Shown in pieces: positions 9,900 through 49,338 of a stretch of DNA of 64,000 nucleotides. The notes beneath the pieces are model-generated. The model saw only the letters and a list, made by a program, of their open reading frames with translations. It was not told the DNA's origin and searched no databases. Within the stretch, counting starts at the first letter, position 1. Every line of letters begins with the position of its first letter. The stretch covers positions 25,355,081 through 25,419,080 of the forward strand of contig NC_089722.1 of the NCBI RefSeq assembly GCF_035083965.1, written 5' to 3'. Source of the stretch: Branchiostoma lanceolatum. Its lineage: Eukaryota. The translations under genes were made by a program, and so were the position numbers.

Positions 9900-10286
9900 G
9901 TAAGTCTGGCTGATCACCATTTAACCCTAAAAATGCCGGGTAAATTTTAGATGTATTGGAAGGTCAACAAAACTATATCGGTACAGATTCTGAATATCAT
10001 TGGCCCTCACAACACAGTGTAAGCCTTGAAATATTTGCAGTGGTTTTATGTTCACAGTTTTTGTGGCGACTTTTCCATTGCAAAATAACTACACAGGGAA
10101 CAATATCAATACAGATTTTCTGACAGTAATGCTTTCTTTTAGCCCACTGTGAACTTAAAGCAACACTTTGAACACCTCCCCCCCCCCCCAAGTAAAATTA
10201 AGTGCCCTCAAATTTAAAAAAATTACACACAAACAAAAACATAAAACATAAAATACACAAACTCTTTTTTCGCTATCACATTCCAG

Positions 10287-10805: not shown

Positions 10806-10973
10806 TATACCCTGGGAGCCAGACTTGCAGATCAGGCCCAAGGCATTACGCCTGCCGATCTAAATTACTCTTGTGGGTAAGGGCTGGTCAACTCTCTTGG
10901 GCTATAACTCCCCCCTAACGCTTATTTAGATCGGCGGGAGTACTGCCTTGGGCCGTCTGGCTCCCAGGGTAGG
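10806..10973. mobile_element. inverted-repeat (hairpin) MITE with TA flanks, directly after exon 10 donor
   Basis: Arms taccctgggagccagac...gcccaaggca..cgcctgccgatctaaat (10808-10865) and its reverse complement (10924-10971). TA on both flanks suggests a Tc1/mariner-type element. Confidence 0.5.
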
Positions 10974-11185
10974 AGGTCTTAAAATACTCAACCTCCTATC
11001 TGATGAAGTCTGCCTCAACAAGTCTGTTGCATGCTGCTGCACCACCTAGCAGTGGAAAGTAGAACTACATGTAGCCAGTATTGTCCTGGGCAGAAGGACT
11101 CCCAAACATTGACAGGTAACTGTTATTGGTTTGTACAAATAACCTTATTACCCATTGATCTGAAATGTTTCACATCATTTCATAG

Positions 11186-26723: not shown

Positions 26724-26881
26724 ATGACGGACAGAAAGCAGGGTCGGTTTTCGGGAGGGAATGCGGAGGAGTCCATCTTCCGCATCCCGCCATTCTACTA
26801 CATGCACGTGCTGGACCAGAACCTCAACGTCACCAGGACCGAGGTTGGGCCAAAAACCTACATCCGACAGGACAATGAGAA
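26724..26881 (+). CDS. MVP: major vault protein exon 1
   Basis: Translation [52 protein letters not shown]. Compare human [39 protein letters not shown]. Donor gagaa|gtatgt. Confidence 0.9.
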
Positions 26882-28058
26882 GTATGTTCTGTTCATTTTC
26901 ACCTGTAGAAATTCTGTATCTGTATAGCCTGTACATTGTATAACCACCCTTCGACATAACACACCAGCTTTGCAGGCACGCAGCGTAACAGCAGCTGGTT
27001 ACATTACACCGAACGACCGCCACAGTACACATTTATAGTACAACCAACATTAACCCTAGAAGCATCAGGCAAGCATACACACGCCCACTCATTGAAGGAG
27101 TCGTCAGTACAATAAAAACTTCACTATACAAGTGTACGCAAGGTGTAAAGCAGGATGAAATTTACTGTATGTACATGTTTATTACCCAGAAAAATGATAA
27201 AAGATATCATTGATTGAAAGCTAGTTTTCAACATGATATTCAAAGTAGCAAAGGTCCATGTTTTTGAAGAATTGTATGACTTTGCATTCTGAATAATTTA
27301 TCATGAAATAACATTACATTGTTCTGCAGTCAATACCAATTTGGTAATGGGATTTGATGAATGACAATTTTGGAACTGATTCTTCACAGACCTTGAGCAA
27401 ACCTTGTTAATAATGGTTTTTCTACATGATGCTCCCGATATTGTAATGTTGGTATGGTAGGGTAGGGTCCATGCAATTCTTTGGGACTTTGCCAAATTGT
27501 CTTTTAAAACCTTGTCACTCATATGCAGGAAACTCATGTCACTGGTCACTGGTACAATGAAGAAAATGCTAAACGTTACATAATATGTAAAAATTACGAT
27601 GTACAGGACTTTCAAAAAATTAATCACAAAGTGAATCTATTACTCATTTACAAGTGCTCATCACAATGATTGATGATAGAGAGATCTAGAATTTACCTTG
27701 GCTGACAAGAGAACTGGACCTGTTGAGTACTTGACACTACAACATTTTAAAAGATATGGAAGTCTTTAGTCTGCATATTATGCAAACTCCAGCTGTCCGG
27801 GGCTGTGATTACATACTTATGGGCTGCTTGTTTACGGGAAGCTGCTATCAAGCATGATTAAATCAGGCTAGGAAGTCTTGTCATAGTAAAATATGCTCAT
27901 ATGGCTTTGTTGTCTCCAGAGTTGTGCTGCCTCCAGAGGTGATCTTGCCGCCAGTCCATAATGTAGTGTCTGTTTTACTTAACCTACTGATGTGTATTTG
28001 GGACTTTGCCATTGAAATGAGATAATCATATTAATTTTTTTTATTTTTGTTGTGTCCA

Positions 28059-28255
28059 GGGTTGTGTTGCCTCCAGAGAAGATGATCACGGTGCCGCCGC
28101 GCCACTACTGCGTCGTGGAGAACCCTGTGGTGCGCGGTGAGGATGGGGCCACCGTGTACGACACCAGCGGACAGGTGAAGCTGGTCCACGCCGACCTGGA
28201 GATCCGCCTGGCGCAGGACCCCTTCCCACTCTTCCCTGGAGAAACACTCAAACAG
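28059..28255 (+). CDS. MVP: MVP exon 2
   Basis: Translation (K)[65 protein letters not shown]. Compare human [12 protein letters not shown]...[23 protein letters not shown]. Confidence 0.9.
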
Positions 28256-29009
28256 GTGGGCTGAAAGGTTTCTAGGACTTAGAGAAGGAGATATGATACT
28301 CTATGAGCACCTATACAGAACGTAAGCATTGAAGGTCATGTTCGCGTATTTGAGGTTAATATCTGGTATATATAGGTTCATACAGTTGTGTCGAGAGACA
28401 TATCTTATACAACGACTGTAACTCTTATACAATGTTGACCAAAGAGGATGAAAAAGCTATGATAGGATAGCAGGATAGCTCATTACATTCTAGATACATA
28501 GCGTACTCCATGTGTGTTATCTTTTACCATTTGAATGTAATATGAAAACTATTGATGATGTAGGTGTAAGCACGCAGGATTTCAACCAGCCACGATAGAT
28601 TTATTCTAGGTAACCTTTTAGTGATAGATATAACATGATTTTTTATCTAAACAATTTAGTAGACATATTAGATTGTAATGCTATAACTATTGGTATAGGG
28701 AAGTGTATCATCGATCAGCCACTATTAGATAACTGTTGAAAGGGTAAAGAATCAAAGTACATTAAGTGTAATAAAATCAATGGTGATATGATGCAGAATC
28801 ACCCTTTGTCCCCATCCCAAAGGTTGTTTTACACAAGATCAGAGATGGTCATGTGAAATCAACTTAAGGTTAAAGGTTAGCAGACAGAGATAACAGAATA
28901 ACAAATACTCAAGACATTCAGTAACAGAATTTTGGTCATTATCAGATCAGCTAAATATTTACAGAGGTCTAATGTCATGTATGGAATGCTTTCATCTCTG
29001 AAATATGGT

Positions 29010-30108
29010 ATAACGTTGGGTAACCTAAATTCGGGATTTTTCCGATAATGGTTGACTGAAATCAATCTAGCAGAACAATAAACCATCCTTTTTTTCTATT
29101 ATTCTGTCAGTATCATGTACTATCTTTGCACTAATCATATATATGGTAGATTTTGTCTCTAGTCGTGCTGACACCATAATATTTCAACTTGAAACTACCG
29201 TGCGCCGCACGCACAATTGTGGTGCTGTCGGACAGGGGGGCACATTAATTCGGGAGAGAAGATTCGTCTTGAATATCTTACCGCTAATCACATTTTATAC
29301 AGCAGCTATTCGTTCTATCCTTGGCTTGAGGAGAGTGCTATGGATATAGACGTGTCCAAGTAAAAAAAATACACGAAGAAACGGCCGTACCGCACACATC
29401 AGGCCAGTTCGGGAACAACCCGTGTGTTGAGTCGGTAGAACTTCACTCAAAGTCGGCCCATCGTCATCATCGGGCAACGTGTAACGTTACATTATTCATG
29501 GGAAGTTAGCTGGATGCCGTAGCAATGGTAATACTACTATGTCCATGTGTTCCTTGTTGTGTTAGGAGCAAACTTTGAGGAAAATATCTTCCTCAGTCCA
29601 CTATCACACGCAGCATTTAGACAAAAAAGTGTTCCTCACAAACCTTTGTCGTCTGCTTGACAACAGGATTCTGGTTAACAATATGGCGGCGGGAAAATAC
29701 ACGTGCCGTAGGTTGTAGCAACAGAGAGGAGTTTTGATGATTGATCACACTTAGAATATAGTTGCAGGTTAGCAAAAGAGATTGTAATAAGTTGTCTTAT
29801 AAATAATTGTGTTTAGCAGGCAGGAGATGTGACATTTGTCTTATAAACCAGCGAACAACCGTGCTGGGTGATTCTCCCACGAAGCCCCCAGACTCTGTCA
29901 ATAAGGGACGGAGAGGTTTTGACGTCGCCAACTTCTAATGCATGGTTATCGAAGCTTTTCAGCCAGTGTTCTGAATACGTTAGTCTATCTGCTTTGCATT
30001 GCTGGCGTTATAACTGATTTTGCATGTAGCACATATCCCTAAATACCCCGTTTTCGAAAAATCCCGACTTTAAGTACCCCACGAATTTAGGTTACCCAAC
30101 GTTACATG
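29010..30108. mobile_element. DNA-transposon-like insertion (~1.1 kb) with ~35-bp TIRs taacgttgggtaacctaaattcgggatttttcc, in MVP intron 2
   Basis: Left TIR 29010-29044. Right TIR 30056-30106, the reverse complement with a 16-nt internal insertion. Confidence 0.5.
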
Positions 30109-30276
30109 ATATCATGGTTTACAGGTTTGTTAGCCAGAAAAAGCTTTTATACAGTTTTGGAGGCAGATATAGCCATCTCCCTGCTGCCTAACACTAAGTA
30201 ACCTTGTACAAATGGACTGAAATATCCTCAGCATGGAAAGGGTTAAAACGTTATCTAATCTATTACCCCCTTCCAG

Positions 30277-30399
30277 AATGTGACGCCCCTGAAAGTGGTC
30301 TCTGCGGACACTGCCCTGAGGCTGCGGGCAGTCCTGGACTTTGAAGACCAGACAGGACAGAAGAGAGTGGCCGGAGATGAATGGCTCTTTGAAGGACCA
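30277..30399 (+). CDS. MVP: MVP exon 3
   Basis: Translation [41 protein letters not shown](G). Compare human [41 protein letters not shown]. Confidence 0.9.
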
Positions 30400-30633
30400 G
30401 GTTAGATACTCAATATGCAATTATTTCATAGACTAGCTAGATGTTTTTATAATCATCCAAATCAAGGACTGGGATGAAGTTCTGAATAGTTGGCAGCCAT
30501 ACTTTCCAAACTGTATGTCGCTGATTCCTGCATGCAATTCAAAGATTAAGAATGCTTTGTTTTGATTTGTTTCTTACAGCAGATTTCTCCGGTTGCCACT
30601 ATGTCTTATGCTGCATTTCTTTCCTTTAAATAG

Positions 30634-30765
30634 GCACTTACATTCCAAGGAAGGAGGTTGTAGTTGACGAGACAGTCCGTGCGACCGTGATCTTGCCGAA
30701 CCAGGCCATCAAGCTGAGGGCGCGCAAGGAGACAGAAGACCGCGATGGCAACCACAGGGTCACAG
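30634..30765 (+). CDS. MVP: MVP exon 4
   Basis: Translation (G)[43 protein letters not shown](G). Compare human [44 protein letters not shown]. Confidence 0.9.
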
Positions 30766-30802
30766 GTGACATTGCAAACTCTGATTCTGATTTTTTGGTT
30801 AA

Positions 30803-30965
30803 GCATCTCAAGATTTATCTAAAACATCTCAAGATTTATTCAAAATGTCTCAAGATTTTTCTAAAACATCTCAAGATTTTTTTTAAACATCTCAACATAT
30901 TTCTAAAACATCTCAAGATTTATTCAAAACATCTTACAATTTTGCACAAAATCTCAAGATGTTTT
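30803..30965. repeat. minisatellite, ~21-22-bp unit catctcaagatttatctaaaa x ~7.5, in MVP intron 4
   Basis: Tandem imperfect copies are visible in sequence. Translated it gives the [19 protein letters not shown] repeat ORF artefact at 30687-30968. Confidence 0.85.
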
Positions 30966-31084
30966 TAATGAAGATTACTACTGGCAGTCATTCTCTATCA
31001 TTTCACAATATAAGCCATAACTCTGTTTATTCTGATTCTACTAAATAATGGTGCATGACACAATTTTGTTTTTTGTCCATTCAG

Positions 31085-31179
31085 GTGAAGAGTGGGTTGT
31101 GAAGAAGGTGGGAGCCTATCTGCCCGGTGCATATGAGGAGGTTGTGGACGTGGTGAACGCCTATGTCCTGACAGAAAAG
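31085..31179 (+). CDS. MVP: MVP exon 5
   Basis: Translation (G)[31 protein letters not shown]. Compare human [31 protein letters not shown]. Confidence 0.9.
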
Positions 31180-31469
31180 GTATCTTGAACAAACATTTTC
31201 TTCAAATTCTATTGTTGCATATAGACCAATCCCATGTACCTGCCTACATTATTCAAAATTTAGACTGCAATAGAAAATAAAAACAGAAGTATGCAAAAAA
31301 TGTGACATATGTGCAGCCACTTTCTTCTTGGTTAAACTTCAATTTTGATTGACAACTAGGATAAGTCCATTGCAATCTTATGGCAGATTTTTGTCAGTGC
31401 CTTCTTTCACTTAACTATAGCATTTTTAGAGCACTGCTGACCATGGGTGTATTCAAATGTGTGTTACAG

Positions 31470-31595
31470 AAAGCTCTGCACATGCGAGCGCTGCGGACCT
31501 TCAAGGACTTCAAGAACCAGACGAGGAAGAGCGGTGAGGAGTGGCTCATCACAATGGAGGACACCGAGACTCACATTCCGGATGTTTATGAGGAG
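31470..31595 (+). CDS. MVP: MVP exon 6
   Basis: Translation [42 protein letters not shown]. Compare human [42 protein letters not shown]. Confidence 0.9.
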
Positions 31596-31841
31596 GTATG
31601 AGAGCCGAAACACACCCTGTTATAACTGTAGTTGTAATGCATGATTGACAGCACAGGCCATATAAATATTAACACCTAAAGCTGCCTAAATCCAATACAA
31701 CTACCATAAGGCTAGTTTGGCAGAGAAAATGTTAAAAAGGCATTAGGAATTAGTAAAATGTAAAGATTTAGAGAATATGAGAATCAAGCTGATACACATG
31801 CACAGTACATCTAAATTTGAGTTTCCATGTTTACTTTCCAG

Positions 31842-31952
31842 GTTGTTGGAGTGATCAACATCACGACCCTGAGCAACCGCGAGTACGCCGTGATCGTGGA
31901 CCCTGTAGGGGAGGATGGGAAACCCCAGTTGGGCCAGCGGAAGCTCGTTAAG
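31842..31952 (+). CDS. MVP: MVP exon 7
   Basis: Translation [37 protein letters not shown]. Compare human [37 protein letters not shown]. Confidence 0.9.
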
Positions 31953-32272
31953 GTCAGTACTTTAAAAGTTTTATATCTTTGCCAGAAATGTGGATGTGTG
32001 TGATGAAAAGTTAGTGGCGTTGTCCAGTCCACATAGACAATATCTCACGTCAACCTCATATATCATTGAACCAGAATGCTAATTTTTTTTTGTCTTTCCA
32101 ACCAACATATTATTTCTGTGGTTTTTCACTAATATTGAACTCCTATCACTTGTATTGAACTGCTGTCAAAATAAAGATATTAATTCAAGGAAAACCAGAC
32201 AGTCTTGAATTGCGTCTTGAGGCCTTGCTATCAACTTGAAGGAAGTAAGAGAGATGTTGTGGTTTGTTTCAG

Positions 32273-32398
32273 GGGGAGAAGTCCTTCTTCCTGCAGCCAG
32301 GGGAGACCCTGGAGGACGGGATCCAGCCCATGTACATCTTGGAAGAGGACGAGGGACTCATCCTTAAGGCTAACGAAGCCTTTAAGGACATGGATGCT
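32273..32398 (+). CDS. MVP: MVP exon 8
   Basis: Translation [42 protein letters not shown]. Compare human [37 protein letters not shown]. Confidence 0.9.
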
Positions 32399-32593
32399 GT
32401 AAGAACATCACTTTTTTCTTTATTATATAGATAAAGAAATTATAGTCATTTCAATTTTTAGAGAACCAGAGTGCCCAAGGAGGTTTAGATAGGATTTAAA
32501 CCCCTTTGGAGTACATAAGGGCAAAGTCAGGCTTTCAGGTCAGCAATAGATGTTTTTCTGTGAGGTATTTCATAGCAGGTCTGTTTTGCTTAG

Positions 32594-32647
32594 ACTGACG
32601 ATGAGGAAGCTGATGAGGAAGTGTCGTCCAAACCAGCCGGCGCCCAG
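32594..32647 (+). CDS. MVP: MVP exon 9 (acidic micro-exon)
   Basis: tag|ACTGAC..cccag|gtaaca. Translation TDDEEADEEVSSKPAGAQ. Compare human EEGEDEEKVSHQAGD. Confidence 0.75.
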
Positions 32648-33323
32648 GTAACACCGGTGACTACAGCATCTGGATCTCTGTAGCTTTGCTTGAGTTTGTG
32701 GTGTTAGGGCATGAAAAAAGAAAAACTCATCATACTTGATTGGATTAGTGATGGCAAATGCAACTAATTCTGTTTGATTGCATACAGTGTGATTTCGGTT
32801 TGCCAAATGGTGCATGAACTACAAGGTAATTTTGTGGGTTTTGATTGCGTGGTATCGTATCTCTATTTATTTTGTTTTTGTTACGTCTTGTAAGCAAACT
32901 TTGTATGCTTCATTGATTTTCCCATGTTCTGCCATGAATAGATAACACTTATTAGTGAATTCTTTGGATTCAATCAGACCAATGCTGTTTTAAGGTCATC
33001 TATGATGAGAATGTACAATCTCCAAGTCTTATAGTCTATCAAAAGCTCAGAACTTGTAGATGTGTGTAGATTGCTGTGGGCTTAACTGTTAAAGTTTGTC
33101 CATGAATATTTGCTGTGACTGATAATCACTAACAGTGCAAATTGTTTTTACCCAAGCCATTCCATTAGTGCAGTTGCATGCCAGTCACTGCTTGTGATTC
33201 TTGTGCAATATCTATTAGCCTCCAACCCTGCACTTCTACTCTACTATCTATACTACTTTTGACATGCCGTCATCTATAATATATAAATCTATCATTGATC
33301 ACAAAATTAAATTTTCTTTGCAG

Positions 33324-33482
33324 CAGAAGGACGGAGTAGAGCGCAAACCTGGAGACCGCTGGATGATCCGCGGCCCTAAGGAGTATGTTCCGCCCGTGGA
33401 GGTTACCGTGGTGATGAAGAGGAAGGCCATTCCATTGGACGAGAACGAGGGTATCTACATCCGGAATATCAAAACTGGCAAG
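33324..33482 (+). CDS. MVP: MVP exon 10
   Basis: Translation [53 protein letters not shown]. Compare human [43 protein letters not shown]. Confidence 0.9.
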
Positions 33483-33774
33483 GTGAACAATTTGGTTCCA
33501 CATTTGCTTATTTGCTATCAACTGACCATTGACCCTTTTCCATTAACAAGGACTGAAACCAGTTCTTTTGGTAGGGATCTTTTAGTTCACATTCTTTGCA
33601 TTTGAACATTTTCAAGTTTTGTGGTCACACTGTGCAGTATAAGCAAAACTTTCCCCCCAAGAACTAAAAAGCTGAGTGTAAAATACACAAACAAATCTGC
33701 TATTCTGCATAGCAACTCTGTTGATTGTTTTGCATGTCTGAAGCACAGATAATGTATGACCTTTGACCTTGCAG

Positions 33775-33876
33775 GTCCGTGCGGTCTGCGGACAGACCTA
33801 CATGTTGGACCAGGATGAGGAGAGTTGGGCCAAACAGCTGCCGCCAGCCGTGGAGGCTCTCCTCACACAAAACTTG
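33775..33876 (+). CDS. MVP: MVP exon 11
   Basis: Translation [34 protein letters not shown]. Compare human [34 protein letters not shown]. Confidence 0.9.
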
Positions 33877-34910
33877 GTAGGTACATCTGCTGACTGGAAA
33901 ACCAGTCAAACTTGAGCAAAATGTTGGCAAAGAAACTGTATGACCAAAATATCAGGAACCCAAGTGTGGCAGGTCCTAAAATGTCTTGCGCAGAGAAAGC
34001 CAGATTTACCTGTAGTCAAGCATGTATTAGTACAGTGCTCATTCTTTGAGACAGGTAATAGATGGGGAAACAAAGGAATAAATGTTAGATTTACCTCAAT
34101 GCATCAGATCGCTCCACATAAGCTTAATCAAGATGATCAAAGATGCTAAAAAAATTTTCCAACACGGATAATGTACACTTCCGGCATCTGAAATTTTAAG
34201 TGATACTTATACTTAACTTGCATTAAAAAAGACGGTTTTTACTGTCATTAATCATATTACCTACCAACACAGGTGAGCTTATTCATTCTAATATCGGTCA
34301 AATTTATTCCTTTGTTTTGTAACCCCACTGTATAGGTACTAGACACAGGCAGACCTGCATTTGGGTCTATGATGAACATATGTCCTGATCTAGGGGAAAT
34401 TCAACAGGAAGTTCAACAACAGGTTCAAGTTCAAAAACAGCAGAGATCTCAGCCTCGCTACAGAGCTGCTGAAGTTGGCATGGCTGTGCAGGCCTACAGT
34501 AATGTTGGGAGTGTAAGTTAAGGCAAAGTAGAGAGCAACTTGCATGGGTGCAACTGAGAAATTACTGTAGCTTTCACTATGCATTTCTGGTTGTGTGATG
34601 TGTATGTGCTTAAACCTGGCATAGATGTGAATGCAAAAAAAGGCACAAATGCTTTTTTTCTTGCTTTAAACATATGCAATCTAAGCTTCAATGTTGCAAT
34701 TAAGCTATAGAGTTGTAGCTGTAGCTTAAGCTGAAGCTGCACAGCACTACTGTAACAGTTTTTGAAACTAGATACCAGGACTTTGGGGTATGCCAGACAT
34801 CTATTAGGCAATCTCCCATTTAGGGAATGAAAGCTACAGAATTCCTTTATTTAGTTGCCTTAGGAAAAGCTCTCTGAACTGTTCTGAATTTCACCTGTTT
34901 GCTTGTTTAG

Positions 34911-35047
34911 GATCCTCTTGCAGACCGAAGCGACCGTGGTACCCGCCCGCGTCCCGATCAGCCACGTGACAAAACCAAGGTCGTGACCTTCCGTGTGCCT
35001 CACAACGCTGCTGTCCAGATCTACGACTACAAGGAGAAGAAAGCAAG
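34911..35047 (+). CDS. MVP: MVP exon 12
   Basis: Translation [45 protein letters not shown](R). Compare human [48 protein letters not shown]. Confidence 0.9.
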
Positions 35048-35379
35048 GTATCTATGATATTGATATATGGTATCTTTATGTCTATAATATTATGATCTTG
35101 ATTTTTACTGTGGAATTTCTCAAGAAGTAAAACCAAACTAGCAAATTACTAGTGGAAGACAGTGACACAAACTTTCATGTAGTATCGACGTGTGCATGAT
35201 GTCTAAGATATCTGTTGGGCAGATTTAAATTCCTGATTCTGAGTCATACAGAATTTTTCTTTTGCAGTTGCAGTTCATATCTCCATGTTTGATATTCCTT
35301 GATAGGTCAATAAGTTGAATAGAATCTCTGGGTTACAATCAGTGACCAATACTGACCATGGATTGCTGACTATATTTCA

Positions 35380-35578
35380 GGGTTGTGTTTGGTCCGGAAC
35401 TGGTGCTGCTCGGTCCTGATGAACAGTTCACCCAGCTCAGTCTGTCTGGGGGGAAGCCCAAACGACCCAACGTCATCAAGTCCCTGTGCCTGCTCCTCGG
35501 GCCTGACTTCTGCACCGACATCATCGTCATAGAGACGGCTGATCATGCCCGTCTGCAGCTGCAGATGAGCTACAACTG
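35380..35578 (+). CDS. MVP: MVP exon 13
   Basis: Translation [65 protein letters not shown](W). Compare human [66 protein letters not shown]. Donor aactg|gtaggt. Confidence 0.9.
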
Positions 35579-35767
35579 GTAGGTGATTTGTGACCTGTTC
35601 CTCCCTTATATCAAATGGAACCTTCTAAATCCCACTATCTACCTGCTCCAACTAACTAGCAAATATATCATTGGTCTCATACCAGTGTTACCATATTTTC
35701 CTGCCTACAGCCTAGCTTACTATAACTTATTGGTCTCACATCAGTGTTCTTTTCTTGTGACCTCCAG

Positions 35768-35906
35768 GCACTTTGATGTCAAGGACAAGGAGAAAGATGG
35801 CAAGAAAATTTTCAGCGTCCCAGACTTTGTCGGCGATGCCTGCAAGGCTGTTGCCTCCCGTGTCCGTGGCGCTGTTGCTGGCGTTCAGTTTGATGATTTC
35901 CACAAG
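35768..35906 (+). CDS. MVP: MVP exon 14
   Basis: Translation [46 protein letters not shown]. Compare human [48 protein letters not shown]. Confidence 0.9.
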
Positions 35907-36176
35907 GTGAGGTCATTTTCGTGTTAGTGGAAAAGGAAACATGGTGAAAGTTTGTGGTGAAACAAATACATGTAATACTTAATATATGAGTTTGTGATGA
36001 GATTTCAAAATACTGCAGTCTTAAAACCACTGTGACTGTTTCACGATTTACAGTACCCGGTAGTGTTCTGAAGGTTCTAACATTATGGAGCATATTATTC
36101 ACTCTTGTAATCTCCTCAAGTACAACTTTCATAACAATCAGGATTGTAACCTCAGTGAATCAAATTGTAATTCCAG

Positions 36177-36241
36177 AACTCGGCTCGAATCATCAGGGCA
36201 TCAGTATTTGGTCTGGATGAGAGCAACAAGGTTCGCAATGT
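36177..36241 (+). CDS. MVP: MVP exon 15
   Basis: Translation NSARIIRASVFGLDESNKVRN(V). Compare human NSARIIRTAVFGFETSE. Donor aatgt|gtgagt. Confidence 0.85.
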
Positions 36242-36269
36242 GTGAGTACCCTTTTCTTTCACTTTTCTA

Positions 36270-36380
36270 ATTTGTGTACTTTTGGATGGGACATAAAGTC
36301 GGGTCCTGTGTTTGAGGATGTGCCTCGAGTATGGTAAAGGGGGAGGGCTAGCAACCCGTCTCTATAGAAATATACCCTGG
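36270..36380 (+). mobile_element. tRNA-derived SINE fragment (family A body, motif gtgcctcgagta), in MVP intron 15
   Basis: gaggatgtgcctcgagtatggtaaaggggg matches gaggaggtgcctcgagtacgttaaaaaagg at 57058-57090. Confidence 0.4.
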
Positions 36381-36579
36381 CTCTGAAACAGCAAGGAAAC
36401 TTGCTACTAGGCACTGCAAGCTCTGAATCAGCAAACCGATCAGCGATATATGTATCAAGGGTACAACAAAAGCTATGGGGTAATTTTGGATAGTCAATGC
36501 ATAAAGGAGTGTTACAGTTCCAAATTCCCCTTTGAATATCCTGCTGATAATCACTGAACATTGCCCTCTGTCTGTACAG

Positions 36580-36843
36580 TTTCACGTTCCCCCAGAACAA
36601 CCTTGTGATCACCAGCGTGGACATCCAGTCCGTGGAGCCCGTGGACCAGCGCACACGAGACTCCCTGCAGAAGTCCGTCACGCTCGCCATCGAGATCACC
36701 ACCAACTCACAGGAGGCGGCGGCCAGGCACGAGGCGGAGCGCGTGGAGCAGGAGGCCAAAGGTCGCCTGGAGCGGCAGAAGATTCAGGACGAGGCAGAGG
36801 CGGAGAATTCACGTCGAGACCTGCTGGAACTGCAGGCTAAGAG
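36580..36843 (+). CDS. MVP: MVP exon 16 (shoulder / coiled-coil start)
   Basis: Translation (V)[87 protein letters not shown]. Compare human [86 protein letters not shown]. Confidence 0.9.
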
Positions 36844-37405
36844 GTGTGCACTCTTCTGACTGAAATTGTGGAGTTAAACCATCTTCCACCCGTCATGATC
36901 AATTCAAGTGACCCATAGTAGAACTATTCCTGTTGTCTGCATGCTCGTCAATGACATTTGCTTTCTTGATATATTCTGACTGCCAAGAGATGTGCACTCT
37001 TCCTGTAGCATGAAAGCTCTTCAGTGTTCATGATTGAAAATGTGGAATAAAAACTGCCATGCATTTAACATTTCGACTTATGTTCCTAAATGGGCTACAG
37101 AAGACTTTTTTGTCCAGTGAAATAAAAGCTTCTTATTGAAATGAGCAACGGTGATCAAAGATCTCAAGAAATGCAAACCAAATTATATACATCTACCAAG
37201 TTGTTACTGATTTGTAGGATTTGTATTTCCATGCACATTTTTCCTGACTTTAGACTGTTCTGGATCAAATTATGGTAGAAGGCATCCTTCCATCTCGAGA
37301 TGATGGTAGCACTCTGGTGTCATGGCCATGGGCAGTGTCTTGTGTTGCTGGTCAGTCCTATCCTAGTTCTAACAGCGATGATATTGTGTTTCCTTCCTTC
37401 TTTAG

Positions 37406-37532
37406 TGCTGCGGTGGAGAGCACCGGACAAGCCAAAGCAGAGGCCCAGTCTCGCGCCGAGGCAGCCAGGATCGAAGGCGAGGCGGCGGTTGAGCAGGCAA
37501 AACTCAAGGCACAGGCCTCCAAGATTGAAGCT
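37406..37532 (+). CDS. MVP: MVP exon 17 (coiled coil)
   Basis: Translation (S)[42 protein letters not shown]. Compare human [42 protein letters not shown]. Confidence 0.9.
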
Positions 37533-37959
37533 GTAGGTTTTCATTACTTAGGTCACTTAAAATTGATTGTGTGGATGACATCTGTTGTGTCTGTGAAAAT
37601 ATCATGTTTCAGTGGTCATTTGATATGGACTAATTTTCTGAGAACTAAATATCAACAATGACTCAGTGTTTGTGTCTTTATAACTCTACAAATGCCTGAC
37701 TCATCATAAGTAGATGCTCATCATTGTCAATTACTTAATCTGTATATCCATGAAAAAAAGTTTTTTCTTCCAAACATGTTGAATGACTGGAAAATAGAAA
37801 TGTTAAGAGTCACAAAGGTAACATACATACAAAGGTAGCAAACATGTATTGTACCTATATCATTTTATACCATTTGATGATACTGTGTCCAAAAATAAGT
37901 ATTAAAAAAAGTATCAGCCTAGTGGGTGTACTAAACTTGACCACATCTTGATTTTGTAG

Positions 37960-38148
37960 GAATCTGAGCTTGAGCGCCTGTCGACAGCGCGCGAGGCCGA
38001 GTTGAAGTACTTGCGGGAACAGAACGACATGGAAGTGGCGAAGCTAAGGGAAATGGCCGAAATTGAGACGACGAAGTTCAAGAACCAGGTGGACGCCATC
38101 GGCGCCCAGACTATCCAGTCTATCGCCCTGGCCGGTCCTGAGCTACAG
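37960..38148 (+). CDS. MVP: MVP exon 18 (coiled coil)
   Basis: Translation ESELERLSTAREAELKYLREQNDMEVAKLREMAEIETTKFKNQVDAIGAQTIQSIALAGPELQ. Compare human ..[30 protein letters not shown]. Confidence 0.9.
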
Positions 38149-38501
38149 GTCAGGGTTTTTCATGTGCTTCTTTGTTTTGTTATGTTTTTCTTTGTTTCAC
38201 AAGAAACACCTAATGCCCTATCAAAATCTATGACCATCTACACAGCACGTCACCAGAATGTAAGCATTTAAGGTCGTGTTTGCGTATTCAAGGTTAACAT
38301 CTCGCATATAGGTTCATTTAGTTGTGTCCAAAGACATATCTTATGCAACGGCTGTTACTCCGATGCAACGTTGACCAAAGAGAACAAAAGAAATTTAGCA
38401 GTTATGATAGGTTTAAATAGCAGACTAATTGCCATATATGCATTACGTTCTGAATACATGCTCATGTACTGTCTTTAAACATGTTCTTTACCCATCCACA
38501 G

Positions 38502-38666
38502 GTCAAACTACTGAAGGGCCTGGGCCTGACCTCTACCCTGATCACAGATGGTACTTCTCCCATCAACCTCTTCAACACTGCAGGGGGTCTGATCGGGGCC
38601 ATGGGCGGGGCAGCCAGTGGCCATCCTGCTCGTTCCCGCCGCCACTCCGATTCCTCGGAAGACTAG
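38502..38666 (+). CDS. MVP: MVP terminal exon (stop TAG 38664-38666)
   Basis: Translation [54 protein letters not shown]. Compare human [32 protein letters not shown]. Confidence 0.9.
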
Positions 38667-40165
38667 AAAGCTCAATGCAACCCCTCTTAAAGTAGTTTTA
38701 TAAGACCAGTGCGTGTAGTGCTGCAGACCCCAGAAATGACAACTGGATAGAATAGACTTGAGAGTAAATATTACTTTCATAAAGAATTTCTAAAAATCGG
38801 TCTACTTCAAGTGGTGATAATGGAAAGCAAACATTAAACATCCTGACCAATATGGCTGCAATCCCTACCTGTGGGGTAAGGGAGGAGATAAAACTATGTT
38901 TGAAGTGCTACTTACACAACTCAACATATACAATGCAAATGCTGGGCTCGGGAGTTGCCAAAGAGAGGGAAAGGGGCTAAAAGAAAAACTTACTAAAACC
39001 ACAAGAGAGACCTTTGCCATGTTTTTTTCACTCCCTGTTACAAGTCCCTAATAGACTTTGGGTTTGTACCTTTCACATGAATACGACAGCTTTATTTTGA
39101 CCACCAAAGAGACTTAATGCATGCAAGAAAACGTCTATGTTCAGATGATGAAAATTACTGAAGATACTGTTCTTTGTTGATGGTGAAAATTTGTGAAAAC
39201 AAAAACTATGAAAAGCAAAAATATGCACTATTCTGGCTGACATTGTGTTGTTGATATTCTATTACGATTAGGTGGATTATGGTTCTCTAGAATTAGGAAA
39301 TGTAAAGATGAAGGTTTGATGAAAAGACAAGTTTACTATTGCTGGCTACTGCTCTATAAATGTTTATCTCTTGTATGATAAAAACACTACAAATGATATG
39401 ATAGTTTTGAAGAAGCAGATTCTATAAGAAACAGCTTATGACATGGTGTCCAAGTCTTGAGATTAGAATTATAGGACATTTATGGTATCACTGCTACAGA
39501 TATAGTTTTGGAAGCTACTATGCCTTACTTCTTTGTGTAATTATAATATTCCTCCGTGGTGTTAGCTGTTAGCTGTAGAGACTACATTTTGTACTTTTTG
39601 GTGGGACTGATTTTCGTCACTTTTGCCAGTCATACTTTTTGTGCTGTTGGATCATTATGATTACAATTCTGTTTTCTGTATATCTTGAAAATATAACTTC
39701 ACAAAAGTGTAGCAACTTGTCTTGGTGACAATAATCCTTATAAACATTGACCGAATAAAACCTTGGTTTAGTTGGATCGATAAACATATAGTTATGTAGA
39801 AAAATATGAATAATTGCACACAACAAAATATGACCCACTAGATAAAGACGTTACTTACAGAAGGCATTTTATGTTGTGACAAAACAAAATGGCCTCAAAT
39901 GCTGTGTTTTGACATAGCTGAAGATTTTGGAACTCTTCATGAATTTTAGGATATGTTCTCAGAAATTGTTTATCATATTAGATATGCATCGTAACGTCAT
40001 AATGCTATAATTCTGTCATGACAATTTATCACAGTCAGTGGCAACCACAGCCTTGATATTTCACCAGCTCTCGTCTTGGTCAAGTGAGTCTTCTGAGAGT
40101 TTTGGGAGTTCAACAGCCCCTTTCAGTCTCAGCAGCTCCGGAGTCGTGGGTCCTAGTAGCAGAGG

Positions 40166-40338
40166 TGTGTTCGGGTCTAACGAGATGGAGCTTCGCGGTG
40201 AAGCGAACGGGCCAGCGACAAGGCCCTTCCCGCCAAAGGCATGGCCACTTGGTGTGTTCGGATCTAAGGAGATGGAGCCTCGCGGTGAAGCGAACGGGGC
40301 AGCAACAAGGCCCTTCCCGCCAAAAGCATGGTCACTTG
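40166..40338. repeat. tandem duplication, 86-87-bp unit x2 (~90% identical)
   Basis: Unit gtgttcgg(g/a)tcta(a/c)(c/g)gagatggag(c)ctcgcggtgaagcgaacggg..caaggcccttcccgccaaa(g/a)gcatgg(c/t)cacttg. Open on both strands (the + ORFs at 40038-40355 and 40084-40371, and a Met-less - frame). Confidence 0.85.
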
Positions 40339-40531
40339 CTGATCTGCATGCATAGGAAAGATGTAACGTAGTTGGGACCTTTGAATGGTTTATTATTTAA
40401 CTATTCAACAGAACAAAATGTATACATAGTGCATACATTCAAGATGGTGCAGAAACGGAAATTTGTTATGTGGATTCGACTTCTTCCCGTTCCTTTTTTA
40501 ATGATGGAAATATAGGTTCAGATATCTAGTT

Positions 40532-40855
40532 TTATGGCAAGATGATAATGATATCATATCTACACGCATAAGAAGCATAAACTTTGCGTTTGAAACAAGA
40601 CAGCGTTTGTACGTACCCTTCATCTTGTTCTTCGACGATTGCGGCCACCCCTGGAGCGATGGAAGACCGTCTGCGAGACCTCCTTCGCGCCCTGTTCATT
40701 CTCTGTATCTCTTCTATGGCAGAGATAGGGAGATCCTCGTCGTCGTCTTCCATCACTGTGATCGTAGGAGTGGTATGATGTGAAATTATTTCCGCCCGTT
40801 TTAATAGATGGATAGAGGAGGTTCGTTTTGAAATCGTGCATCCCATTTTGATCAC
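40532..40855 (-). CDS. small N-myristoylation-motif protein X1 (candidate first exon; conserved GTACGT donor would end it at 40617)
   Basis: ORF MIKMGCTISKRTSS...RARRRSRRRSSIAPGVAAIVEEQDEGYVQTL..; MGCTISK fits the MGxxxS/T N-myristoylation consensus. Paralogous to the 44325-44531 ORF (RRxS..PG....(D/E)4-6Y motif). Donor-like gaagg|gtacgt sits at the same codon position in both. Confidence 0.4.
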   Translation of the reverse strand: MIKMGCTISKRTSSIHLLKRAEIISHHTTPTITVMEDDDEDLPISAIEEIQRMNRARRRSRRRSSIAPGVAAIVEEQDEGYVQTLSCFKRKVYASYACRYDIIIILP

Positions 40856-47564: not shown

Positions 47565-48412
47565 GTAAGTTCTAAAAAAAGCAGGAGAAAAAGAATGACA
47601 AGGACCCCGTCGGTCGATAAACTTGCCCCATATTTTAAGAGGGTGTCTAACAGGCAAGAAGAAGCCTTCTACACCGAGATGTCCTTAAGCCGGCGTCACA
47701 ATTCATGCGAGCGTCGGCCGACTTTGTAGATCGCCCGAAGCTCGGCGAATTTCAAAATCGCGCGAGCGTCGACCGTATTTTCCAATGAAAATCTCGGGTA
47801 ACGTCCGTCGAACACTAAAAACTAAAGATCCCCCATGAGATGGTACCATCACTTGGACATGGAAGAGGTCAGTATCGACTAACCTGGTAAAAGGCCAATA
47901 TTTGGATCAACTATGATTTCTAAAGATCGCCCGAAGCCCGCGTAATCGACAGGACGTCGGCCGTACTTCGGCCGAAAATGCAAATTTGAAGCTCGCCAAC
48001 ACGTCGGCCGAGGTGAATTTCTTATTTGTGACGGGGGCTTAAGGTATCCTAAGGTATATTTTGCCGTCGTGTAGGAAATAAAATCATTTGACGTATTGAA
48101 TTCGCAAGAACACAAACACGTAGTTTCATTCAAGCATGTATTCGGCATGCGAATGGTACCGCATATGAAACGCCGATATAAGTACAAAGAATATGCTCAG
48201 AGAATATGCCAGCTGTTCTCACTTGGACTAGAAAGGAGGATTGCAACAGACCTTGCGTGTGTCCAGGATCGGACTTTTCCACCATATCTTAGCTTAGCAG
48301 ACTTAGTCAAGAAAACGGCAGTTTAGGTCTGCCATGTATTTTCGCTTTCATTTCCCTTGACCCTTCCTCTTTTCAATGAATACCGATTAAGTGTCGTTCT
48401 TTGATCCTGCAG

Positions 48413-48544
48413 TTGAGTCTCGCTGCTGGGAGGGGGCGCTGGTGTGCGCGCATGGGCAGTTCTGCGTGTGGCAGGAGTGGCACTGTGACGGCTCAAATGA
48501 CTGCGGGGACGGTTCGGATGAGATCAACTGTGCAAAATCAGAAA
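48413..48544 (+). CDS. serine protease exon 5 (LDLa module)
   Basis: Translation (I)ESRCWEGALVCAHGQFCVWQEWHCDGSNDCGDGSDEINCAKSE: 6 Cys, DCGDGSDE. Donor |gtaggg (weak). Phase 1-1. Confidence 0.75.
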
Positions 48545-48710
48545 GTAGGGGTGAACAGCTTCGTGTTCTTGTGCTTTTTTCTATCTTTTGCTAGTCTGAG
48601 TAGATTTAGTCCGGTCGGTAAGATTGCGGCCATATGTATATTACCTGCGCAATCGGCGTCCTCGTCAAAATGGATTCATTTTTGTTGTGAACCCTTTCTT
48701 GTACACTCAG

Positions 48711-48971
48711 ACCAGAATTCCAACATCGTTATGGCGGCTTGGAACCCGACGTCTCCTGCCCCCACGACCACCACCACTGCTGCCACTACCACTACCACTA
48801 CCCCGGTCCCTGTTGGCGTCTGGGGCAGCTGGACAGACTGGTCGGCGTGCTCGGAGTTCTGCGACGGAGAAAAGACTCGTACAAGGATTTGTCTGACCGT
48901 TCAGCTGTGTGAGGGGCCGACTTCCGAGACTACCAACTGTGGAGACCCGCCACCGTGTTACACTGAGCCTA
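48711..48971 (+). CDS. serine protease exon 6 (Thr-rich mucin-like linker + thrombospondin type-1 repeat)
   Basis: Translation ..PTSPAPTTTTTAATTTTTTPVPVGVWGSWTDWSACSEFCDGEKTRTRICLTVQLCEGPTSETTNCGDPPPCYTEP (TSP1 core WxxWxxWSxCSxxCxxGxxxRxRxC). Phase 1-1. Confidence 0.75.
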
Positions 48972-49338
48972 GTGAGTGGAAACTTTACTCAGAGAACTCC
49001 ACGCCTGCATTATCGATACAGCTGCTTGCCTGTATGTGGATAGTATTCAGCACCAAGGACAGATGTGTTTGCCTGTGTGTTGATGGTGTTCAGCACCAAG
49101 GACAAATACATGTTACCCGTGTGTGAATGGTGTTCAGCACCGACGACAAGTCTGTTTGCCTGGGTACGGATGGTATATGAACATGTCTGTCTGAAAATTT
49201 TTTGAAAACTTTACACCCGCGTTATTGATGAAGTTGTTACGATTAAAGTTACATCACAGGTCTTCAACAGATACCTTCCTTTGAACAATTCCTAGTTATC
49301 GTCTGTCGATGCCATTCGTGTTGCCTTTCGTCCCGCAG

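Follow-up and report, generated by a model that had tools for sequence, protein, structure and literature searches.

An in-frame 87-bp duplication in the predicted terminal exon of a small gene convergent with the major vault protein gene in Branchiostoma lanceolatum

A repeat open in several frames beside the MVP gene

An open frame that contains no methionine and lies directly after a candidate first exon raises the question of whether it is itself an exon and, when it runs through a tandem repeat that is open on both strands, of which strand would be read. We studied such a locus in a window of the Branchiostoma lanceolatum genome ("the window" being the whole stretch of 64,000 nucleotides that was analyzed). 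The window has ca. 41% G+C and is intron-rich, and its sole Rfam match is mir-2060. Tandem Repeats Finder and a second repeat search agreed on a unit of 87 bp, present 2.0 times head to tail (positions 40164 to 40250 and 40251 to 40337), with 80 of 87 bases identical between the copies (92%) and no indel. The original prediction was right about a tandem duplication, and its figures (86 bp, positions 40166 to 40338, ca. 90% identity) were off by one or two bases. Homology between the copies stops at the repeat edges and includes neither flank; the copies meet precisely and in frame, and no Ns are present there. Two probes of 22 to 25 nt, with three mismatches allowed, matched nothing but these two copies within the 64 kb (0 matches expected from shuffled sequences). 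The repeat lies in a G+C island (positions 40062 to 40360) of 57%, against 32% in each flank.

Across the repeat, four of the six frames were open or nearly open, so that openness alone says little and cannot decide the coding strand. The minus-strand frame is free of stops from position 40396 to a TGA at positions 40061 to 40063 and has no Met, exactly as in the translation that first drew attention to it, and both plus-strand ORFs listed alongside it (40038 to 40355 and 40084 to 40371) are present.

The plus strand from ca. 26.7 to 38.7 kb holds the major vault protein (MVP) gene, the exons of which were mapped with MVP homologues. Its last coding exon, including the stop, spans positions 38499 to 38666 (TAG at 38664 to 38666) and converges on the small gene described below, with ca. 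1.4 kb between the two stop codons. What we took to be a faint likeness of the plus frame 40084 to 40371 to the C terminus of human MVP prompted the idea that this frame is the C-terminal tail of MVP. The MVP homologues put the last exon at positions 38499 to 38663, with the stop at 38664; since the repeat lies 1.4 kb past that stop codon, it is not an MVP tail.

Gene model on the minus strand

Every minus-strand AG from position 40560 to 40062 was listed as a possible acceptor. The candidate first exon (X1) leaves 2 nt of a codon at its donor at position 40617, which makes the intron phase 2. Among all acceptors listed, only that with an exon start at position 40343 (tttcctatgcatgcag/A, the slash marking the splice site here and below) yielded a long in-phase frame. 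This acceptor, tacatctttcctatgcatgcag/ATCAGCAAG, also had the best pyrimidine tract of those listed, and the frame runs for 94 codons to the stop. A phase 2 join to the 40617 donor had been expected from an acceptor between positions 40380 and 40530; the phase was correct, and the AG is found at 40345 to 40344, outside that interval. The initial residues of the open frame (..SYACR), which had been read as part of the exon, are translated intron.

The predicted gene has two coding exons, both on the minus strand. The coding part of exon 1 (230 nt, positions 40617 to 40846) starts with an ATG at 40846 to 40844, in the context AAAATGG, and encodes MGCTISKRTSSIHLLKRAEIISHHTTPTITVMEDDDEDLPISAIEEIQRMNRARRRSRRRSSIAPGVAAIVEEQDE and the first 2 nt of a Gly codon. 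It is followed by an intron of 273 nt (positions 40344 to 40616), with the donor GAAGG/GTACGT (GT at 40616 to 40615) and the acceptor tttcctatgcatgcAG/. The terminal coding exon, exon 2, spans positions 40061 to 40343 (283 nt with the stop codon), encodes (G)SASDHAFGGKGLVAAPFASPRGSISLDPNTPSGHAFGGKGLVAGPFASPRSSISLDPNTPLLLGPTTPELLRLKGAVELPKLSEDSLDQDESW, and ends with the TGA at 40063 to 40061. The spliced product is 170 aa long. Exon 1 has a second in-frame Met at position 40753 (MEDDDEDL...), but the upstream ATG at 40846 (MGCTISK...) is most likely the start codon. In an exact look-up in the protein collection, neither the 170-aa nor a 139-aa model was present.

As the 87 bp amount to 29 codons, the predicted terminal exon carries an in-frame duplication of a 29-residue module, S[D/G]HAFGGKGLVA[A/G]PFASPR[G/S]SISLDPNTP (alternatives in brackets), and the Ser/Pro-rich peptide that had been proposed to occur twice does so in the spliced frame. 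The 5' copy in gene orientation (positions 40251 to 40337, minus strand) begins 6 nt past the acceptor and encodes SDHAFGGKGLVAAPFASPRGSISLDPNTP, and the 3' copy (positions 40164 to 40250, minus strand) encodes SGHAFGGKGLVAGPFASPRSSISLDPNTP.

Comparison with Branchiostoma floridae

An exhaustive phmmer search of 1.84 billion representative proteins with the 170-aa model returned a single strong match (P0121, 140 aa, E = 3e-69, 84% identity). This protein is XP_035690272.1 of B. floridae, "uncharacterized protein LOC118425507," which is the same as XP_002605779.1 (BRAFLDRAFT_121890) and UniProt C3YDH8; a near-identical entry, XP_078599460.1, belongs to the assembly of a hybrid (B. floridae x B. 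japonicum). These B. floridae models were predicted computationally, and the same protein emerged from two or three annotation efforts. The alignment extended over the full length, from residue 1 to the C-terminal Trp, and included identical runs of 17 and 14 residues shared with the exon 1 and repeat-frame translations. By this comparison, the small gene is the orthologue of LOC118425507/C3YDH8, already annotated and uncharacterized, and of the two roles first suggested for the Met-less frame, internal or terminal exon, it is the latter that fits. No homologue outside Branchiostoma was accepted among the 1.84 billion representatives, so that, within the reach of single-sequence HMMER, the protein has orphan status.

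The genomic context is shared as well. At one B. floridae locus (L001), exon 1 lies at positions 10001 to 10224 and exon 2 at 10896 to 11094 of the plus strand, with MVP at 12531 to 21094 of the minus strand, and a second locus (L002), 97% identical to it, represents the second haplotype. The gene is convergent with MVP in both B. floridae haplotypes as it is in the window, each time with ca. 1.4 kb between the stops, and the flanks are collinear between the species at 68 to 80% identity. LOC118425507 and the gene in the window have the same MGCTISK start, the same exon junction (EEQDEG/SASDHAFGG), the same stop, and the same terminal Trp. The B. floridae intron interrupts the same codon in the same phase 2 with closely similar splice sites (GTACGC...TATGCAG/ATCAGCAA), although it is 671 nt long, compared with 273 nt in the window. 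Relative to the B. floridae proteins, the product of the window has two residues inserted in exon 1 and lacks one residue after the module. The number of modules also differs, being one in the 140-aa B. floridae proteins and two in the 170-aa product.

Exons 1 and 2 (the latter with one copy removed) were 87.5 and 87.2% identical to those of B. floridae, compared with 70% in the 5' flank, 74% in the 3' flank, and 52.7% in the essentially unalignable intron. In exon 1, we found one 6-nt indel and 13 silent and 11 replacing codon changes, with no stop, while exon 2 had one 3-nt indel and the same stop position. The differences in coding length (6, 3, and 87 nt) are thus all multiples of three, and neither species has an internal stop. 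Differences at codon positions 1, 2, and 3 numbered 15, 13, and 29, third positions that one antisense frame shares, and the dN/dS ratio was 0.27 to 0.29 by Nei-Gojobori counts. As judged from these substitutions, the gene as a whole was shown to be under purifying selection. Between the two copies, the duplicated codons had 5 silent and 3 replacing changes (dN/dS ratio of ca. 0.19); over these 7 to 8 substitutions, our own binomial estimate gave a one-sided p of ca. 0.04, or ca. 0.09 with the strict 87 bp only, which is suggestive of constraint on both copies.

We weighed these data against the reading that the plus strand codes, through ORF 40038 to 40355 or 40084 to 40371, the minus frame being open by accident. 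Both ORFs are open in the window, and the frame of the former runs through the B. floridae exon without a stop as well. Within the repeat, this frame had the top codon-usage score (+1.4 bits, versus -26.7 for the gene frame) in a crude and weak test based on a small MVP-trained table of ca. 900 codons, in which the gene frame was the best for exon 1 and for positions 40064 to 40163. The third-position excess fits it equally well, because by our own frame arithmetic its third positions coincide with those of the gene frame. However, ORF 40038 to 40355 has no ATG start, its only Mets being inside the repeat and its listed start a bacterial-code GTG, and the frame of 40084 to 40371 carries stops in B. 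floridae, as does the antisense frame over exon 1. Among the exon 2 changes, 5 were silent and 15 replacing in the plus frame, versus 8 and 12 in the gene frame, and G+C-rich coding sequence commonly yields an open antisense frame in this register as a by-product. The plus strand also has no splice partner, whereas the minus strand has a conserved ATG, stop, GT/AG pair, and phase, and we regard plus-strand coding as highly unlikely. The strand, initially left undecided, is thereby settled as minus, and with it the gene-model question, the Met-less open frame very probably being a real terminal exon.

The same evidence bears on the reading that the region is noncoding, a noncoding transcript or a long 3' untranslated region between convergent genes, and that the B. 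floridae protein is an annotation artifact. The restriction of matches to Branchiostoma among the 1.84 billion representatives, the lack of a Pfam or PDB relative, and a low-confidence structure model that is mostly coil would all agree with this, as would the fair conservation (70 to 74%) of the 3' region around it. Against it stand a dN/dS ratio of 0.28, the third-position excess, three indels that all preserve the frame, the conserved start, stop, splice sites, and phase, the contrast between exons (87%) and intron (53%), and a frame that stayed open through an 87-bp duplication and 7 later substitutions; we regard it as highly improbable. As for the second copy being an assembly artifact (for example, two alleles placed in tandem) of a gene with one unit, heterozygosity is very high in amphioxus genomes, with ca. 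3% divergence between the two B. floridae haplotypes here, and the window's species was represented by the one assembly examined. Divergence between the copies is 8%, with 3 to 4 private changes each relative to the outgroup, which is above the allelic divergence seen here and argues against an artifact, and by our reasoning 87 bp is far below the scale of the read or contig-end effects that produce false haplotypic duplications, so that we give this explanation very little chance. The reading that we prefer, an orthologous two-exon gene beside MVP with an in-frame 87-bp duplication in the window's lineage, very probably accounts for the locus as a whole.

Other identities for the repeat were also considered. 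A structured RNA was rejected, since there was no Rfam match over it at E values up to 10 and its RNA fold was no more stable than those of shuffled sequences (z-scores of -0.34, +0.15, 0.00, and +1.32); a tRNA scan found nothing on the feature. A dispersed repeat (SINE or MITE) or a minisatellite was rejected, there being only two adjacent copies in 64 kb and one per B. floridae locus. DNA pattern scans with the conserved unit sequence found no match in viral, metagenome, and prokaryote genome collections. The only further matches of the exhaustive protein search were bacterial Ser/Thr kinases with TPR (P0122 to P0125, E values of 4e-6 to 9e-4), in which KGLVAAPFASPRGSISLDPN of the module aligned with KGDVEGAIASYR.AI.LDPN of the TPR units at ca. 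35% identity, in 5 to 9 matched stretches per protein. The TPR period is 34 residues and that of the module is 29, so that a 5-residue gap is needed per unit. A TPR identity was rejected given the prolines within the would-be helices, the lack of a Pfam TPR match at an E value of 10, and a coil model with a pLDDT of <50, and the score itself came from one motif summed against many near-identical units. We treat the resemblance as chance or convergence.

History of the duplication and the predicted product

Both B. floridae haplotypes have the unit once, and both copies of the window align onto that single unit by BLASTN, so the duplication arose in the window's lineage, once this had separated from B. 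floridae. This comparison of copy number and frame between haplotypes and species, which had been suggested at the outset, turned up no frame-disrupting indel. Over the 87 positions, the B. floridae unit differs from the 5' copy at 10 and from the 3' copy at 10, and the copies differ from each other at 7. Relative to B. floridae, 6 changes are common to both copies and 3 to 4 are private to each, which indicates that the duplication is not recent. As a rough clock based on small counts, 3.5 private changes of 5 per lineage would place it in the older part of the interval since the split. At the protein level, the two modules are identical to that of B. floridae at 25 and 26 of 29 residues.

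In-frame internal tandem duplication in coding exons is a general, well-known route to protein repeats. Here, a piece of 29 codons starting 6 nt past the acceptor was doubled head to tail in frame, presumably by replication slippage or unequal exchange, and the protein grew from ca. 141 to 170 residues, now with two modules. The present breakpoints (ATCAGC/AAGTG... and ...ACACACC/TCTGC, slashes marking the breakpoints) show no microhomology from which a mechanism could be read. Like other in-frame tandem duplications of short disordered segments, this one is head to tail, a multiple of three in length, and predicted to be disordered, with both copies open; it differs in consisting of only two copies rather than an array, and since these are already 8% diverged, it is not an unstable minisatellite. 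This lineage-specific duplication of 29 codons, intact long enough for 8% divergence, is a clean but ordinary example of the growth of disordered regions in young, taxon-restricted proteins and opens no long-standing question.

AlphaFold2, run with an alignment of three sequences, gave a mean pLDDT of 52, with one helix at residues 43 to 59 (AIEEIQRMNRARRRSRR) and otherwise coil; the repeat module, with a pLDDT of <50, is predicted to be disordered. Pfam gave no match for the protein at E values up to 10, and a profile search of the PDB gave no relative, only chance matches with E values of at least 0.5. No paper mentioning the gene was found by accession numbers or peptide strings, and a general literature search gave nothing relevant. 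The MGCTISK start, the RRRSRRRSSIAPGVAAI stretch, the cluster RRRSRRRSS, and most of the module are invariant in the window and both B. floridae sequences. The PROSITE pattern for N-myristoylation, PS00008, is G-{EDRKHPFYW}-x(2)-[STAGCN]-{P}, and MGCTISK fits it, with Gly2, a small residue at position 6, and Cys3. A Cys3 after Met-Gly can be palmitoylated, as in G-alpha i/o, and RRxS is a basophilic-kinase site. G-alpha i/o (MGCTLS...) and Src-family kinases have the same type of Met-Gly-Cys start and are dually acylated, but there is no sequence relationship to them past the first six residues.

Along these lines, the product may be a peptide that is mostly disordered and that N-myristoylation and palmitoylation anchor to membranes, in which RRRSRRRSS would be a cluster of basophilic-kinase sites. 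The module carries an S-P site; the TP of PNTP, stressed at the outset, is not conserved (PNAP in B. floridae). Both copies would be translated and either tolerated or useful, given their 5 silent versus 3 replacing changes, and the duplication would double a short linear region containing the Ser-Pro motif, raising its valency. The full scenario, a cephalochordate-restricted orphan that is an acyl-tethered disordered phosphoprotein and whose best-conserved C-terminal module is a functional linear motif, doubled and kept in both copies under selection, is tentative, and we hold it to be rather less probable than not. If it were true, nature would here have run a small experiment on the valency of a motif in a young gene. 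For annotation, the value lies in a small gene beside MVP that is conserved between amphioxus species and that automated pipelines could miss or whose repeat they could mishandle, and the duplication offers a minor marker for comparing amphioxus lineages.

Conservation between the convergent small gene and MVP

The small two-exon gene on the minus strand (40846-40061) and its plus-strand neighbour, the gene for the major vault protein (MVP), form a convergent pair in the window. The MVP gene appears to be complete, with at least 16 exon blocks spanning 26763-38666 (+), and its TAG stop codon begins at 38664 on the plus strand. The two stop codons are separated by 1.4 kb (38667-40060 in the window; 11095-12530 in L001, the B. 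floridae locus that carries both genes). This segment is 69 to 74% identical between the window and B. floridae, including long near-identical patches, in contrast to the intron of the small gene, which could not be aligned to its B. floridae counterpart. Together, the sequence identity between the stop codons and the unalignable intron suggest long conserved 3' untranslated regions, which may overlap.

Similarity and search sensitivity at the protein level

In bacterial TPR units, the helix-B/loop consensus reads ..G.V..A.AS.R.AI.LDPN. The tandem 29-residue module in exon 2 of the small gene (40164-40337 on the minus strand, protein residues 81 to 137) resembled this pattern, and the library E-values were as low as 4e-6; we judged the module and these units to be non-homologous. 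The B. floridae orthologue of the small gene escaped the word-indexed protein search despite runs of 17 and 14 residues identical to the queries, and all MVP matches from this search were of 403 aa or less. A negative result in this search does not amount to absence for eukaryotic proteins.

Other repeats in the window

Two other short tandem arrays were found, one at 19644-19751 (20 nt, 5.4 copies, 96% matches) and one within an MVP intron at 30804-30960 (21/42 nt, 7.5/3.8 copies). The segment at 21584-21664 is an almost perfect hairpin, in which a loop of 5 nt separates two 38-nt arms that are 95% complementary. Given this complementarity, one peptide (AWMPDPQSLKYL...) is encoded twice, by an ORF on each strand. 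The hairpin may represent a small element of the inverted-repeat type or the precursor of a hairpin RNA. An Rfam match to the mir-2060 precursor at 49024-49174 (+) (73 bits, E=3e-15) sits within a tandem array of about 3.4 copies with a period of 43 to 44 nt. A long ORF on the plus strand (48401-49126), which contains a thrombospondin-type-1-like motif (WGSWTDWSACS...), shares its terminal part with this array.
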